From Candidatus Tayloriibacteriota bacterium (GTDB lineage Bacteria > Patescibacteriota > Minisyncoccia > Phycocordibacterales > UBA6065), in the NCBI GenBank assembly GCA_016215405.1, contig JACRJQ010000002.1:125597-186143 (forward strand): a DNA stretch of 60,547 bases. Reading direction: 5' to 3'. Position numbers and translations under genes: made by a program. The notes under the pieces are model-generated. The model saw only the letters and a program-made list of their open reading frames with translations, did not search any database and was not told the DNA's origin. Shown here in pieces: positions 30,650 to 43,795 of the stretch; position 1 is the first letter of the stretch; each line of letters begins with the position of its first letter.

Positions 30650-33600
30650 ATGTCTCGCTTCATCCACCTTCACACCCATTCCCACTACTCGCTTTTGGCC
30701 GCTTTGCCGAAGATCGAGGACTTGGTGAAGGCGGCGAAAGCCGACGGCGCCCCCGCGCTCGCGCTTACCGATAACGGAAATCTCTACGGCGCGATCGAGT
30801 TCTATAAGGAGTGCAAGAAAGCGGGCATCAAGCCCATCATCGGCGTCGACTTCTACGTCGCGCCGAGGACGCGCAAAGACAAGCAGTCAGGCATCGATTC
30901 TCGCCGGACGCGGCTCATCCTCCTCGCAAAGGACTATCAGGGATACAAGAACCTCATACAGCTCGTGACGAAAAGCTACCTCGAGGGCTTCTATTACAAG
31001 CCGAGGATAGACCGCGAGCTCATCGAGGCGCATAAAGATGGCCTCATCGCGATAACTTCGGCATTCTCGGGCGACCTCACGCTCGCCCTCCAAGGAAACG
31101 ACATTTCCAAAGCCGCCGAGATCGCAGAGGGGTACAAGAAGATATTCGGGTCCGACTACTACCTCGAGATAACGCACCATCCCGATATCGACGACCACGA
31201 CACCCTCATGGAAAGGACGAAGGCGGTGGCAAAGAAGGCCGGAGTCCCTCTCGTCGCCGGAGGAAACGTCTACTATATAAAGCCTGAAGACAAACAGGCG
31301 CAGCAGACCTTGATGCTCGTGAACTCCTCGGGCGACGATCGCATATCCGACGACGATGTCGCGGACTTCTCATTCATCTCCGATGCTGCCGCTCAAGAGC
31401 GTTTCCGCGACACGCCCGAGGCCATCGCCAACGCGGAGAGGATCGCGAGCGAATGCAACCTGGAGATAGAGCTCGGAAAATGGGTCTTCCCGGACTTCAA
31501 GCTGCCCGCAGGCGAGACTCCCGACTCCGCCCTGCGCAAGGTCGTCTACGAGGGCTTTGCTCGAAGAAAGATCGACCAGACGCCCGAGATCGTCAAGCGC
31601 GTCGAATACGAGCTCGAGGTCATAAAGAACAAGGGATATTCTCCTTACTTCCTCATCGTGGCCGACCTCCTCGCCTACGCGCGATCGCACGGGATCCTCT
31701 CGAACATCAGAGGGTCGGTCTCGGGCTCCATGATCACCTACCTCTCCGGGATAACTAATATCGACCCCCTCGAATACGAGATACCCTTCGAGCGATTCCT
31801 CAATCCCGACAGGCCTTCGGCGCCGGATATCGATATGGATTACGCCGATAATCGCCGCGACGAGATGGTGGATTACGCGCGCTCGAAATACGGCATCGAG
31901 AAAGTAGCCCAGATCGGAACTTTCGGCACCATGGCCGCGCGCGGCTCCGTGCGCGACGTCACCCGCGCCCTGGGATACTCCGTCGAGACGGGCGACAGGC
32001 TCGCCAAGCTCATACCTATGGGCTCTCAGGGCTTTCCTATGACGATCGACAAGGCGCTCGAAGACGTGGCAGAGCTGCGCGAGCTCTATCAAAAGGACGC
32101 CGACACGAAGCGCATCATCAACCTCGCGAAGAAGATCGAAGGGTGTGCCCGCCACATCTCCGTCCATGCCGCAGGCGTCGTCATAGCGCCTACCGAGCTC
32201 ACCGATTTCACCGCGCTCCAGTACGACACCAAGGGTGAGCAGAAAATCATCTCGCAATACGATATGTACTCCATCGAGGAGGCTGGCCTTCTCAAATTCG
32301 ACTTCCTCGGCCTCAAGAACCTCTCGATCCTCGCCGATGTCATCGACCGAATCGAGAAGATCGAGGGAAAGAAGGTCGACCGCGAGAGCGTGCCGATAGA
32401 CGACAAGAAGACGTTCGAGATGCTCGCCCGAGGCGAGACCGAAGGCCTCTTCCAATTGAACGGCGACGGTATGACGAAATACCTCAAGGACCTCAAGCCT
32501 ACGACCATCCACGATATAAACGCGATGGTGGCTCTCTATCGCCCGGGCCCGATCCAGTTCATCCCTCTCTATATCGACCGAAAGCACGGCCGGTCGCCTA
32601 TCGAATACCCTGACCCAGCCCTCGAGCCGATCCTCAAAAAGACCTACGGCGTCCTCGTCTATCAGGATGACCTCCTCATGATCGCTCACAAGATCGCCGG
32701 CTATTCATGGGGAGAGCTCGACAAGTTCCGCAAGGCCGTGGGAAAGAAGATCCCCGAAGAGATGGCCGCGCAGAAGGAGAAGTTCGTGAAAGGCTGCGTC
32801 GAGCACAGCAAATGGGCTCCGAAAAAGGCGAACGAGCTCTGGAAATGGATCGAGCCTTTCGCCGCGTACGGCTTTAACAAGGCCCACTCCGTCTCTTACG
32901 GCCGAGTCGCCTATGAGACCGCGTACTTCAAGGCGAACTACCCCGCGATATACATGTCGGCGGTCCTTACCGCAGATTCGGGCGACGTCGAGAGGATCGG
33001 AGAGTCGATCGCCGAATGCAAACGCATGAACATCCCCGTCCTGCCTCCGTCCGTAAACGAAAGCTTCACGGCGTTCTCCGTCGTGCGAAAGGATGGCGAG
33101 CCCGACAGGATACGCTTCGGACTGACGACGATCAAGAACTTCGGCGAAGGGATCGCCCGCGCCATAATCCACGAGCGAAAAGCGAACGGAAGGTATAAGT
33201 CCCTTTCGGATTTCCTCTCGCGCATTCACGACAGGAACCTCAACAAGAAATCGCTCGAATCCCTCATAAAGGCGGGCGCCCTCGACGAATTCGCAGACCG
33301 CGCGGCCATGTACGGGAATATCGACAGGCTGCTCGAATACAACAAAGAGAAGGCAAAAACAGGCGGAGCTCAAGACTCCCTCTTCGGAGGCATGGGAGCG
33401 GGACACGATGATATCCGGCTCGATACGGTCGCGCCTATCACCAAGGCAGAGATGCTCCTATGGGAAAAGGAGCTCCTCGGCCTCTATATCTCAGGACACC
33501 CTTTGGATAAATACAAATCCGTTCTCGAGAAGCGCCCGGTACAGATTTCGACCGTCAAAGCGAAGGCGCTCAAGGAATTCGAAGAGACTCAAAAGGTCAA

Positions 33601-33850
33601 AGAGGATATGGTCGTCCTCGGCGGCATCATAGAAGAGGTGCGCGTCATCATGACGAAGAAGAACGAGCAGATGGCGTTCGTGCGCATGGCGGACCTTACC
33701 GGATCGATCGAAGCCGTCGTCTTCCCGAGGACGTACTCGAGGTTCAAGTCGATCATCGTACCGGAGAAATGCGTTGCCCTCAAGGCGAAGGTCTCTGAGC
33801 GTAACGGCGAGATATCCCTGGTAGCGGACAACCTCATGGCCCTCCAGTAG
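30650..33850 (+). CDS. dnaE: DNA polymerase III alpha subunit
   Basis: PHP domain HLHTHSHYS/ALTDNGNLYG, RGSVSGS, PDIDMD, KFDFLGL, YGFNKAHS, C-terminal OB fold. Confidence 0.98.
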   Translation: MSRFIHLHTHSHYSLLAALPKIEDLVKAAKADGAPALALTDNGNLYGAIEFYKECKKAGIKPIIGVDFYVAPRTRKDKQSGIDSRRTRLILLAKDYQGYKNLIQLVTKSYLEGFYYKPRIDRELIEAHKDGLIAITSAFSGDLTLALQGNDISKAAEIAEGYKKIFGSDYYLEITHHPDIDDHDTLMERTKAVAKKAGVPLVAGGNVYYIKPEDKQAQQTLMLVNSSGDDRISDDDVADFSFISDAAAQERFRDTPEAIANAERIASECNLEIELGKWVFPDFKLPAGETPDSALRKVVYEGFARRKIDQTPEIVKRVEYELEVIKNKGYSPYFLIVADLLAYARSHGILSNIRGSVSGSMITYLSGITNIDPLEYEIPFERFLNPDRPSAPDIDMDYADNRRDEMVDYARSKYGIEKVAQIGTFGTMAARGSVRDVTRALGYSVETGDRLAKLIPMGSQGFPMTIDKALEDVAELRELYQKDADTKRIINLAKKIEGCARHISVHAAGVVIAPTELTDFTALQYDTKGEQKIISQYDMYSIEEAGLLKFDFLGLKNLSILADVIDRIEKIEGKKVDRESVPIDDKKTFEMLARGETEGLFQLNGDGMTKYLKDLKPTTIHDINAMVALYRPGPIQFIPLYIDRKHGRSPIEYPDPALEPILKKTYGVLVYQDDLLMIAHKIAGYSWGELDKFRKAVGKKIPEEMAAQKEKFVKGCVEHSKWAPKKANELWKWIEPFAAYGFNKAHSVSYGRVAYETAYFKANYPAIYMSAVLTADSGDVERIGESIAECKRMNIPVLPPSVNESFTAFSVVRKDGEPDRIRFGLTTIKNFGEGIARAIIHERKANGRYKSLSDFLSRIHDRNLNKKSLESLIKAGALDEFADRAAMYGNIDRLLEYNKEKAKTGGAQDSLFGGMGAGHDDIRLDTVAPITKAEMLLWEKELLGLYISGHPLDKYKSVLEKRPVQISTVKAKALKEFEETQKVKEDMVVLGGIIEEVRVIMTKKNEQMAFVRMADLTGSIEAVVFPRTYSRFKSIIVPEKCVALKAKVSERNGEISLVADNLMALQ

Positions 33851-33853
33851 CCC

Positions 33854-33882
33854 TTGCTTACTTTCAATCGAACCCTTAGAAT
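33854..33882 (+). promoter_or_regulatory. probable promoter of the thrS leader
   Basis: TTGCTT-17 nt-TAGAAT immediately after the dnaE stop. Confidence 0.6.
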
Positions 33883-33888
33883 CGATCC

Positions 33889-34371
33889 TGGAGAAAAGCG
33901 CACCTGAGTCGCGCGCTGGGCATGTCATAGACCTCTGTCTCCGGCTTGATTGGCTTCTCCAAGTTCTTGACTGAACGAATGCATACGCCTCAGCCATGAC
34001 TCCCGGCAGGAAGCCTCCTGCTTCGCTGGCCGCTGCGTCGGACGGGATTCCGATAGAGGTATTCGCGATCGGTGATAGGCAGAACCGCTCATCGGCCAAC
34101 GGACTAGTTCTTCTGCTCTCGATATCGGGCGCTAAAGAGCCTCCACGTCCCCAGCTTCGTGCACGAAGCTGGGGACCTCTGCTTTTAGGTTTGACCAAAA
34201 GACGAGACAGCGATACCATTAGCGGGTCAGAGATTGCCTGGCCTACCAAGCCAGGGCCAAGCGGACCGTCCCTAATCTGACCAAAAAAGAGACAAAAGCC
34301 AGGTGGAACCGCGATCAAAGATCGCCCTAGCAAACGCATGACGAAGGTCGTGCAATTGCTAGGGCGTTTTT
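33889..34371 (+). promoter_or_regulatory. T-box riboswitch leader (transcriptional) of thrS
   Basis: T-box AGGTGGAACCGCG at 34301-34313; antiterminator AGG-TGGAACC-GCGATC-AAA-GATCGC-CCT; mutually exclusive terminator CGCCCTAGCAA...TTGCTAGGGCG-TTTTT at 34323-34371; upstream of an aminoacyl-tRNA synthetase. 5' boundary and specifier are tentative. Confidence 0.85.
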
Positions 34372-34409
34372 ATGTAGACGAAGATCGATTATCAAGATAG
34401 ATCAAGAAC

Positions 34410-36149
34410 ATGTCATCACTAGAGCAGATTAGGCACTCGTTCGCCCACCTCCTCGCCGCGGCGGTCGGCGAACTCTACCCAGACGCGAAGAACACGATCG
34501 GCCCTGCCGTCGATAACGGCTTTTATTACGACTTCGAATTCCCTGAAGGAAAGGCGCCCTCGGACAAGGATCTCAAGGACATCGAGAAGAGGATGCGCAG
34601 GATACTCCCTTCCTGGAAAGGTTTCGAAAAGGTATCGTCGAGCGCGGCCGAGGCGAAGACGCGCTTCTCTAACAACCCCTACAAGCTCGAGCTCATCGAT
34701 GAGATAGCGAGGAAAGGCGAGGAGATCACTCTCTACAAGTCAGGCGAATTCGTAGACCTCTGTCGCGGCGGACACGCCGATGTCGCGGACATGAAGGCGG
34801 ACGCCTTCAAGCTCTCTCGCGTGGCTGGCGCATATTGGCGCGGAAACGAGAAGAACAAGATGCTCACTCGCATCTACGGCTTTGCTTTCGCATCGAAAGC
34901 GGAATTAGAGGCATACGAGAAGCTCGTAGAAGAGGCAAAGAAACGAGACCATAAGAAGCTAGGCAAGGACCTCGGCCTCTTCGTATTCTCAGAGCTCGTA
35001 GGCGCGGGCCTCCCCCTGTGGACCCCGAAAGGAACCCTCGTGAGGGACATTCTCGACTCGTATGTCTGGGAGCTGCGAAAGTCTAAAGGCTATATGAGAG
35101 TAGCCATTCCTCACATCACGAAAAAGGACCTCTACGAGAAGTCTGGCCACTGGGCCAAATTCAGCGAAGAGCTCTTCAAGATCACGACTCGCGAAGGGCA
35201 TCTGTTCGCCATGAAGCCGATGAATTGCCCTCACCATACGCAGATATTCGACTCCGAGCCGCGAAGCTACCGCGACATGCCCCAGAGATACGCCGAGACG
35301 ACGATGGTGTATCGAGACGAGCAATCTGGCGAGCTCTCGGGCCTCTCCCGCGTCCGATCGATCACCCAAGACGACGCGCACGTCTTTTGCCGAGAGAATC
35401 AGATCGAACAAGAGATGTTCGCGGTCTGGGACATAATCGACACTTTCTACGGCACGTTCGGATTCAAGCTCCGTGTAAGGCTCTCTCGTCACGATCCGGA
35501 TAATTTCGACAAATACATAGGCTCGAAGGAGACGTGGCAGCGGGCGGAATCGCAGATAAAGGCGATCATCGAGAAGCGCGGCGCAAAAGACGTCATCGAT
35601 GGGAAAGGCGAGGCCGCGATGTATGGCCCGAAGATAGACTTCATCGCGACCGACTCCCTCGGCCGCACGCTCCAGGTAGCGACGATCCAGCTCGACTTCA
35701 ATATGCCCGAGAGGTTCGGTCTCGTCTGCACGAACGAGAAGGGCGAAAAGGAAGGCATCGTGATGATCCATGCGGCTATAATGGGATCTATAGAGCGCTT
35801 TACGTCGTCTCTCCTCGAACACGTCGCCGGCAACCTCCCCCTCTGGCTCTCTCCTATCCAAGTGAAGATCGCGCCGGTAAAAGAGTCGAACTTCGAGAGA
35901 GCGGAAGAAGTGGGCGCGATCTTTAAAAAAGCGGGCATCCGGGTCGATGTAGACACCACTCCGGCAGGCTTCGGCAAGAAGGTGCGAGAGGCGAAAGACC
36001 TGAAGATACCCTACACGGTCATCATCGGCGACAAGGACATGGAAAACGGCGTCGTCACCCTCGAATCGAGGGATAAAGGGAAGATCGGTGAGAAGACCGT
36101 CGAAGAGGCGCGCGACCTCCTCGTCGAAGAAGCGACCGCTAAGAGATAG
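34410..36149 (+). CDS. thrS: threonyl-tRNA synthetase (no N-terminal TGS domain)
   Basis: IRHSFAHLLAAAV, DLCRGGH, RDHKKLG, KPMNCPHH, QDDAH, GSIERF, anticodon-binding domain. Confidence 0.98.
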   Translation: MSSLEQIRHSFAHLLAAAVGELYPDAKNTIGPAVDNGFYYDFEFPEGKAPSDKDLKDIEKRMRRILPSWKGFEKVSSSAAEAKTRFSNNPYKLELIDEIARKGEEITLYKSGEFVDLCRGGHADVADMKADAFKLSRVAGAYWRGNEKNKMLTRIYGFAFASKAELEAYEKLVEEAKKRDHKKLGKDLGLFVFSELVGAGLPLWTPKGTLVRDILDSYVWELRKSKGYMRVAIPHITKKDLYEKSGHWAKFSEELFKITTREGHLFAMKPMNCPHHTQIFDSEPRSYRDMPQRYAETTMVYRDEQSGELSGLSRVRSITQDDAHVFCRENQIEQEMFAVWDIIDTFYGTFGFKLRVRLSRHDPDNFDKYIGSKETWQRAESQIKAIIEKRGAKDVIDGKGEAAMYGPKIDFIATDSLGRTLQVATIQLDFNMPERFGLVCTNEKGEKEGIVMIHAAIMGSIERFTSSLLEHVAGNLPLWLSPIQVKIAPVKESNFERAEEVGAIFKKAGIRVDVDTTPAGFGKKVREAKDLKIPYTVIIGDKDMENGVVTLESRDKGKIGEKTVEEARDLLVEEATAKR

Positions 36150-36152
36150 CGC

Positions 36153-36596
36153 ATGCGAAACAAAGGATTCACCCTCATAGAGCTCCTCGTGGTCATATCC
36201 ATAATCGCCCTGCTTTCGTCGGTGGCGCTCTCCTCTCTCAATGCGGCGAGGGCGAAGGGCAGATATGCGACCATAATAAGGCAGATGAAGGAGATCCAGA
36301 CCGCCTCGCACGGGTATTACACGGACACGGGTTCGCACGCCGCCGACACGGGTCCCGGAGGCGCGCCTGCGTTCGTCCCTGCCTACCTGAGGTCCTGGCC
36401 CACGCCTCCGTGCGGCGCGGGCTGGACGTACGATTGGGATAACTGGACGTCGAGTAACGGCTTCGTAGGAGTGCATCTCCATAACACGACCTTGGGAGCG
36501 CAGTATAAGCTTTGCACCGACACTACCTCCGCATGTTCGGCGTCGAGCGTGCAGGACATACTCACCGTGGCCCAGAGGTCGATCACCTGCCAATAG
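36153..36596 (+). CDS. pilin-like protein, short four-Cys type, #9
   Basis: MRNKG|FTLIE; YLRSWPTPPCG; starts 3 nt after the thrS stop. Confidence 0.9.
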   Translation: MRNKGFTLIELLVVISIIALLSSVALSSLNAARAKGRYATIIRQMKEIQTASHGYYTDTGSHAADTGPGGAPAFVPAYLRSWPTPPCGAGWTYDWDNWTSSNGFVGVHLHNTTLGAQYKLCTDTTSACSASSVQDILTVAQRSITCQ

Positions 36597-43685: not shown

Positions 43686-43722
43686 TGGCTAATATAGAAG
43701 ACTTGGCCAGAAAGATAATCTG

Positions 43723-43795
43723 AGCCACCTCCCAGGCTTGAACTGGGGACCTACTGTTTACAAAACAGTTGCTCTACCAACTGAGCTAAGGTGGC
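43723..43795 (-). tRNA. tRNA-Thr(TGT)
   Basis: GCCACCTTAGCTCAGTTGGTAGAGCAACTGTTTTGTAAACAGTAGGTCCCCAGTTCAAGCCTGGGAGGTGGCT; CCA not encoded. Confidence 0.96.

Follow-up and report, generated by a model that had tools for sequence, protein, structure and literature searches.

We found that the threonyl-tRNA synthetase (ThrRS) gene thrS of a candidate phyla radiation (CPR) bacterium is preceded by a leader that is very probably a genuine tRNA-Thr-sensing T-box of the terminator type, with its specifier codon ACC in the terminal loop of a short hairpin; its switching is assigned by homology. The leader lies in a 60,547-nt stretch (the window) of contig JACRJQ010000002.1 from Candidatus Tayloriibacteriota bacterium, and coordinates below are window positions on the (+) strand unless another strand or contig is given. 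A first-pass annotation, made from the letters and their open reading frames (ORFs), had called a T-box controlling thrS in a CPR-like genome, and both parts of that call hold. The ORF at 34410-36149 (579 aa) is thrS by NCBIfam TIGR00418 (626 bits versus a cutoff of 384), its product is matched by Pfam tRNA-synt_2b, HGTP_anticodon, and tRNA_SAD, and the T-box core lies directly upstream. The genome (836 kb in 8 contigs, 100% complete) has its closest ThrRS relatives in Paceibacterota/Parcubacteria metagenome-assembled genomes (MAGs). For comparison we used a set of 20 leaders: the window copy, 17 from other genomes of the same genus, one from another genus of the family, and one from another family. 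The dnaE-thrS synteny is kept among these relatives, with the T-box element directly 5' of thrS in every case.

The antiterminator, located by Rfam and covariation, occupies 34298-34331. Its helices A1 (GCCAGG/CCUAGC) and A2 (GCGAUC-AAA-GAUCGC, 34311-34325) flank the T-box bulge UGGAACC (34304-34310), which is invariant in 20 of 20 leaders. The textbook antiterminator read from the letters, with AGG/CCU of A1 and GCGAUC/GAUCGC of A2 around UGGAACC, is thus present at 34301-34328, and it is the sole part that the Rfam T-box model (RF00230) aligns. The first-pass annotation had proposed a search with the Rfam T-box model as a check, and at the gathering score this check formally goes against it. 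With Rfam release 15 at gathering thresholds, the whole window gave no T-box match and only two tRNAs, while a permissive scan of 33840-34430 gave a local T-box match of 19.6 bits (E = 0.037), in which 34301-34328 correspond to model positions 188-215 and cover the bulge, A1, and A2. Matches to NsiR1 and ZNFX1-AS1_2 in the permissive scan were dismissed as chance, merely reflecting the shape of the terminator.

The long terminator with five U residues that had been proposed to overlap the antiterminator was also borne out. Folding and RNAalifold covariation place an intrinsic terminator at 34323-34371, consisting of an 11-bp plus 7-bp hairpin (34323-34366) and U5 (34367-34371), and its 5' strand overlaps the 3' strands of A2 and A1, the shared strand being CGCCCUAGC at 34323-34331. 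In 17 leaders, RNAalifold predicted this terminator with compensatory changes at 12 of 19 pairs. The A1 pair 34301/34328 covaries from A-U to C-G or G-C, and the shared-strand base 34328 (U, G, or C) covaries with both its A1 partner 34301 and its terminator partner, as is characteristic when selection acts on two alternative helices. The terminator has a fold energy of -35.7 kcal/mol in the window, compared to -9.5 kcal/mol for the antiterminator alone; across all 20 leaders the values are -27 to -47 kcal/mol for the terminator, which is followed by a U run, and -5.5 to -13 kcal/mol for the antiterminator. These energetics are a default-OFF arrangement that needs a ligand for the ON state. 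Since 38 nt separate the end of the terminator from the thrS start codon and the terminator involves no ribosome-binding site, control is placed at transcription. As predicted from its sequence, the leader is a transcription attenuator, namely, a T-box of reduced architecture.

All of the leaders follow a common plan. The P1 5' strand, (N)CAGA-GA-UUG, is followed by a hairpin of 6 bp with a loop of 7 nt and by a variable arm; then come the P1 3' strand, CCUAAUCUG(N), a linker rich in purines, the T-box, the terminator, and thrS. In the window, the first 58 nt (34225-34282) are a three-way junction closed by P1, in which the hairpin P2 displays ACC-A. The 5' strand of P1 (GGUCAGA-GA-UUG, 34225-34236) provides a lower helix, a 2-nt GA bulge, and UUG, and pairs with the 3' strand UAAUCUGACC at 34273-34282, which carries the conserved CCUAAUCUG motif; both strands were placed by covariation, and the second also by alignment. 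Sequence conservation of its upper pairs (U-A, U-A, and G.U) and of the GA bulge suggests that they have a tertiary role. P2 (34237-34255) has a 6-bp stem, CCUGGC/GCCAGG, with compensatory changes at all six pairs and about 98% of alignment cells paired, and its loop, CUACCAA at 34243-34249, occurs in the 20 leaders as CUACCAA (14), CUACCGA (2), CCACCAA (2), CCACCGA (1), and CUACCAC (1). The loop is laid out like an anticodon loop, with a pyrimidine, U, three bases, a purine, and A. Within it, ACC (34245-34247) is invariant in 20 of 20 leaders and is followed by a purine (A34248 in the window), again in 20 of 20; the same ACC loop is also present in thrS leaders of distant CPR. Between P2 and the 3' strand of P1, alignment of relatives defines a junction and variable arm, P3 (34256-34272). 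The junction has a semiconserved GCG, and P3 varies among relatives in sequence and in length, from 9 to about 45 nt, with a 9-nt mini-hairpin in the window (GGA-CCG-UCC, 34263-34271). A second ACC, in this mini-hairpin (34265-34267), was rejected as the specifier, being not conserved among relatives. The linker at 34283-34297 (AAAAAAGAGACAAAA), defined by comparison of relatives, is purine rich and single stranded and matches the purines that flank Stem III in other T-boxes.

Covariation establishes the secondary structure of P1, P2, A1, A2, and the terminator. In a MAFFT alignment of the 20 leaders, 93.4% of cells pair, compared to 25 to 46% when the partners are slid, and double changes occur at 12 of 23 pairs; none of 500 shuffles reached the observed measures. 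Adding distant CPR leaders gave 28 sequences, in an alignment that was fitted to a covariance model and so leans toward the structure, with double changes at 16 of 23 pairs and compensatory changes in all four lower pairs of P1. The leader has a fold z-score of -4.35, and its minimum-energy fold recovers P1 and P2.

The specifier and the bulge both fit the tRNA-Thr of this genome. There are four tRNA-Thr genes, with the anticodons GGU, CGU (two copies), and UGU, and all of them have U as the discriminator. ACC is the Watson-Crick partner of the anticodon GGU, which belongs to a tRNA encoded on another contig at G000:C4:77972-78045, adjoining a tRNA-Thr(CGU), and UGGA of the bulge is complementary to U73-C-C-A of tRNA-Thr. 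The variable base of the bulge tracks the tRNA in both T-boxes of the genome, being UGGA with U73 in the thrS leader and UGGC with G73 in a second leader, upstream of aspS, that is described below. Of the four tRNA-Thr genes, the one for tRNA-Thr(UGU) lies in the window at 43722-43795 (-), 9 kb downstream of thrS; its anticodon is not a Watson-Crick partner of ACC.

The first-pass annotation was thus right that the specifier is a Thr codon and wrong about where it is. It had proposed ACU at 34101-34107 or, alternatively, ACC near 34074, inside a Stem I at 34006-34116 with an AGAGG bulge and a GGUGAUAG distal loop. The leader would then be a canonical class I T-box with a long Stem I, ACU or ACC in an internal position, and about 190 nt between that stem and the antiterminator. 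AG-rich and GGUG-containing strings do occur in 34006-34116, and some T-box leaders are long, but Rfam aligned nothing to this segment even with permissive filters on 591 nt, and blastn found no match to it in the thrS loci of 19 relatives, whereas 34220-34375 matched all 19. The segment also lies 5' of a 13-bp terminator-like hairpin and a conserved promoter, both of which intervene before the T-box, and the conserved, covarying ACC hairpin is downstream of these. We therefore regard the long Stem I as extremely unlikely. The intervening hairpin (34147-34176), found by a terminator scan and folding, is followed by CUCUGCUUUU up to position 34186 and is probably the end of the upstream dnaE transcript; terminators of the upstream gene directly precede the thrS promoter in several relatives too. 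The promoter, from a promoter scan and its recurrence in relatives, is sigma-70-like (TTGACC-N17-TACCAT, 34191-34219). The same spacing, with the -10 hexamer ending 8 to 10 nt 5' of P1, recurs in 13 of 20 leaders, 7 of which have identical hexamers. The transcription start predicted from this conserved promoter is most likely near 34226 (34225-34228), where P1 begins.

A hairpin that resembles an anticodon arm in front of thrS has a precedent of another kind. In the translational operator of Escherichia coli thrS, the synthetase binds its own leader at a mimic of the anticodon arm, and the 6-bp stem and 7-nt loop of P2 could be such an autoregulatory ThrRS operator. The loop, however, carries the codon ACC and not an anticodon (GGU, CGU, or UGU), and it therefore lacks the G35 and U36 that ThrRS reads. 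The hairpin is also 160 nt from the start codon rather than at the ribosome-binding site, and it is accompanied by a full T-box bulge that fits U73 and by a terminator. Taken together, these features leave the operator explanation next to no chance.

If the leader is a tRNA-Thr-sensing T-box, transcription would start at about 34226, and the first 58 nt would fold into the P1-closed junction that presents ACC-A. By complementarity, the anticodon GGU of tRNA-Thr would pair with ACC as a loop-loop contact, and the 3' end of uncharged tRNA-Thr, U73-C-C-A, would pair with UGGA and thereby stabilize the weak antiterminator at 34298-34331, allowing RNA polymerase to read through into thrS. With charged tRNA-Thr, homology to known T-boxes predicts that the antiterminator would not be stabilized and that the stronger terminator would form and stop transcription 38 nt before thrS. 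The net effect would be that more uncharged tRNA-Thr leads to more ThrRS. The earlier proposal that the organism monitors its threonine supply is better put as sensing of the charging state of tRNA-Thr to set ThrRS expression. We speculate that the loop might adopt an anticodon-like U-turn and form a loop-loop helix with the tRNA anticodon and that the invariant P1 internal loop GA-UUG/CUAA might preorganize or buttress the codon-anticodon helix, in place of Stem II.

With class I transcriptional T-boxes (RF00230; for example, those of Bacillus subtilis thrS, tyrS, and glyQS), the leader shares the UGGN-ACC bulge between A1 and A2, complementarity of the N of UGGN to the tRNA discriminator, a codon-plus-purine specifier that fits the regulated aminoacyl-tRNA synthetase gene, and an intrinsic terminator that has a U run, excludes the antiterminator, and makes OFF the default state energetically. 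Unlike class I T-boxes, it has no long Stem I, AG bulge, or distal-loop elbow platform; the 6-bp specifier hairpin is closed by a 7-nt loop and therefore leaves no room for a distal domain, and the specifier is in this terminal loop rather than in an internal loop with an S-turn. Neither a Stem II S-turn nor a IIA/B pseudoknot was recognized by sequence, and the region from P2 to the P1 3' strand is 17 nt long, variable in relatives, and not aligned by Rfam. A Stem III hairpin is absent from the window copy and from 16 of 20 leaders, which have 2 to 4 nt instead, and the flanking purines AAGAGAC-AAAAGCC are kept. The relatives L010, L012, L023, and L027 have a hairpin inserted exactly there (AAGAGAC-[hairpin]-UAAAAGCC), and flanking purines are described for Stem III as the RRRxG-Stem III-AA motif (PMC7583486). 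By inspection of the sequence, P1 has no K-turn, since the nonbulged strand (...AAUCU-GACC) has no G-A before the lower helix, and that reading of P1 was rejected. A UAA/GAN-type reading of the GA-UUG/CUAA loop was not adopted either, the U of UAA being C in 3 of 20 leaders. K-turns of the GAUGA/GAG type are present in the aspS leader and in a distant CPR thrS leader, L128 (AAUGA-UACAG-CUACCAA-CUGU-GAGC).

Several points weigh against reading the leader as a tRNA-sensing T-box. Its Rfam score of 19.6 bits is far below the RF00230 gathering cutoff of 93 bits, and conservation of a U-turn is not strict, as loop position 2, the equivalent of U33, is C in 3 of 20 leaders. The A2 pair next to the bulge (34311/34325) is G-C (CGCCC) in 20 of 20 leaders, whereas class I T-boxes have a G.U wobble there that is the primary steric sensor of the aminoacyl group (PMC7583486). 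According to published work, transcriptional T-boxes generally need the elbow-binding platform of the long Stem I, for fast capture of tRNA; a truncated or short Stem I has hardly any affinity for tRNA when Stem II is missing; and Stem III is indispensable, as an antiterminator without it binds no appreciable tRNA (PMC7583486). A leader without platform, Stem II, and Stem III may need an additional contact or a protein. We kept the T-box assignment despite the Rfam score because of the lineage-specific covariance model (see below), the covariation, and the match to the tRNA discriminator. In several CPR leaders that are more distant, the A2 position next to the bulge has the canonical G.U (CGUCC).

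The G-C pair at the base of A2, the very reduced architecture, and the host-dependent, streamlined genome would also fit a decayed relic that has lost tRNA sensing and acts as a constitutive terminator or attenuator. We consider this very unlikely. The bulge, the specifier, and both alternative helices are under strong purifying selection, with compensatory changes, in at least 28 genomes from several families, and a constitutive terminator of -36 kcal/mol before an essential single-copy gene would be harmful. The reported failure of a short Stem I to bind tRNA well without Stem II, and the dependence of the discriminator on Stem III (PMC7583486), fit a functional T-box core and terminator for which the ACC junction is insufficient alone. 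Such a leader would require a protein (for example, an RNA-binding protein, L7Ae-like or other) or an unrecognized tertiary or pseudoknot contact, or else the junction would have another role and specificity would come mostly from the NCCA contact. The invariant GA-UUG/CUAA loop and the semiconserved junction GCG, which have no assigned role, are also in keeping with this. Set against it, ACC is invariant and Thr specific across deep divergence while its stem covaries freely, the loop has the codon-then-purine layout of all T-boxes, and a terminal loop also serves for decoding in the ultrashort ileS class. We judge an additional partner or other junction role to be unlikely, somewhat less so than the relic.

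Ultrashort (US) T-boxes are the closest described kind to the thrS leader in the parts of the literature available to us. There, the US class is the only one described as having a terminal loop that carries the Specifier (bioRxiv 10.1101/2023.02.28.530422), and it is characterized as translational, sequestering the Shine-Dalgarno sequence, and as exclusively ileS/tRNA-Ile and actinobacterial (Sherwood et al. 2015, via PMC7583486 and bioRxiv 10.1101/2023.02.28.530422). The same sources describe it as dependent on a K-turn, a Stem II S-turn purine string, and a IIA/B pseudoknot that buttress the codon-anticodon helix (PMC7583486; bioRxiv 10.1101/2023.02.28.530422). Shared with the thrS leader are the very short Stem I, the terminal-loop Specifier, the lack of an elbow platform, and the anticodon and NCCA contacts. 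Unlike the US class as so described, the thrS leader is terminator coupled, Thr specific, and found in CPR, and its hairpin sits in a P1-closed junction with no K-turn and no identifiable Stem II or pseudoknot. The leader thus shares the T-box core and fails several defining features of both described subclasses.

A stronger reading is that the thrS leader functions with only two RNA-RNA contacts, anticodon-codon and NCCA-bulge, and forms a separate structural class of CPR terminator-coupled T-box; we give this an even chance. In that reading, the junction of about 58 nt with its anticodon-arm mimic would replace Stem I and Stem II/IIAB, with Stem III also gone in the window copy, and GA-UUG/CUAA would substitute for the Stem II purine string, a set of replacements for which we see the odds as equally balanced. 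A rationale for a stable 3-bp contact without a platform comes from complexes between tRNAs with complementary anticodons, which Eisinger and Grosjean and Crothers reportedly described. In these complexes, two 7-nt anticodon loops are said to pair with each other by three bases, with stacking of the 3' purine. Unlike the proposed thrS leader contact, they are tRNA-tRNA complexes without a regulatory role.

The genome has one other T-box, at G000:C6:49262-49417 (-) (L001:1501-1656 (-)), upstream of aspS. Rfam aligns it end to end with 42 bits, with 3 nt in place of 73 Stem I positions. Like the thrS leader, it has a short hairpin with a codon in its loop (GUAACG), a bulge (UGGC) that fits G73, and a terminator with a U run. 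Unlike the thrS leader, it keeps a K-turn (GAUGA...GAG) immediately beneath the hairpin, as well as Stem III and a region resembling Stem II; in the thrS leader, the P1 junction takes the place of all of these. The loop GUAACG carries AAC, an Asn codon, and no Asp codon, and the two tRNAs that the aspS T-box could sense, tRNA-Asn and tRNA-Asp, both have G73. By NCBIfam, aspS is of the bacterial type (465 aa), apparently without the insertion domain. GatB is present, and the sole paralogue of AspRS is LysRS, so the genome has no AsnRS. The aspS leader, from its sequence, probably senses tRNA-Asn to control a nondiscriminating AspRS.

To place the thrS leader among CPR, we used a lineage covariance model, R1, of 117 positions, built from the 20 leaders; its E-values are rough, and its seed sequences match by construction. 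R1 scored 104 bits in the window, 79 to 103 bits in the 17 other genomes of the genus, and 58 to 77 bits in nonseed genomes of other genera and families (G023, G027, L063, L115, and L034), and the named MAGs among its nonseed matches are labeled Paceibacterota, Komeilibacteria, and Saccharibacteria. Among 74 CPR thrS loci with enough upstream sequence, a T-box core (GGUGGAACC) was found in 13, and 6 of these 13 have a strict ACC-loop hairpin upstream of it, compared to a background of 0.01 such hairpins per 220 nt elsewhere in CPR thrS loci. In a sample of 401 Patescibacteria genomes, R1 matched 34 genomes at an E-value of 0.001 or less with stricter filters, while RF00230 matched 126 genomes (31%) at an E-value of 0.001 or less and 8 (2%) above its gathering score. 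Weaker R1 matches precede other genes that resemble those of aminoacyl-tRNA synthetases, with other bulge letters (UGGC and UGGU), from which we conclude that reduced T-boxes are common in the phylum. Many Patescibacteria, among the phylum-wide loci L117 to L143, have short T-box-like leaders, with a UGGA, UGGC, or UGGU bulge and a terminator, before several aminoacyl-tRNA synthetase-like genes (with ThrRS-, AspRS-, and class I-like N termini) and before a histidine-phosphatase-like ORF. Our literature search found no paper on a T-box in CPR, Patescibacteria, or Parcubacteria, nor one on a terminal-loop specifier in a terminator-type thrS leader, within a scope that excluded most subscription journals, so an earlier description is possible.

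Around the leader, dnaE occupies 30650-33850, and the dnaE-to-thrS intergenic region is 559 nt long; this spacer varies from about 30 to 780 nt among relatives. The roughly 300 nt that separate the terminator-like hairpin from the stop codon of dnaE (33851-34146) contain no convincing ORF and no Rfam match, and they show weak similarity in one relative only (L020; 72% over 95 nt, ending at the hairpin). The encoded ThrRS is a short form (579 aa), with Pfam matches to the SAD, catalytic, and anticodon-binding domains and none to an N-terminal TGS domain. Immediately 3' of thrS, an ORF at 36153-36596 begins with a prokaryotic N-terminal methylation (type IV pilin-like) motif.

These results bear on how T-boxes are counted and on what they require. 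The difference between 2% of genomes at the Rfam cutoff and 31% below threshold, together with the scope of TBDB, in which the short-Stem-I model was applied only to Actinobacteria and to class I matches with a truncated Stem I, indicates that T-box regulation in CPR is undercounted. Many CPR genomes conserve, with compensatory changes, a leader without features that have been called essential, and this leader is coupled to a strong terminator. It is a natural minimal scaffold for asking what cotranscriptional tRNA sensing requires and a compact engineering part. If the two-contact class is real, the elbow platform and Stem III requirements of transcriptional T-boxes would not be general, and the sensing unit, with approximately 107 nt from P1 to A1, would come near the lower size limit of natural T-boxes. 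For the organism itself, an 836-kb genome would retain control of ThrRS, and of AspRS, by feedback from the charging of tRNA.

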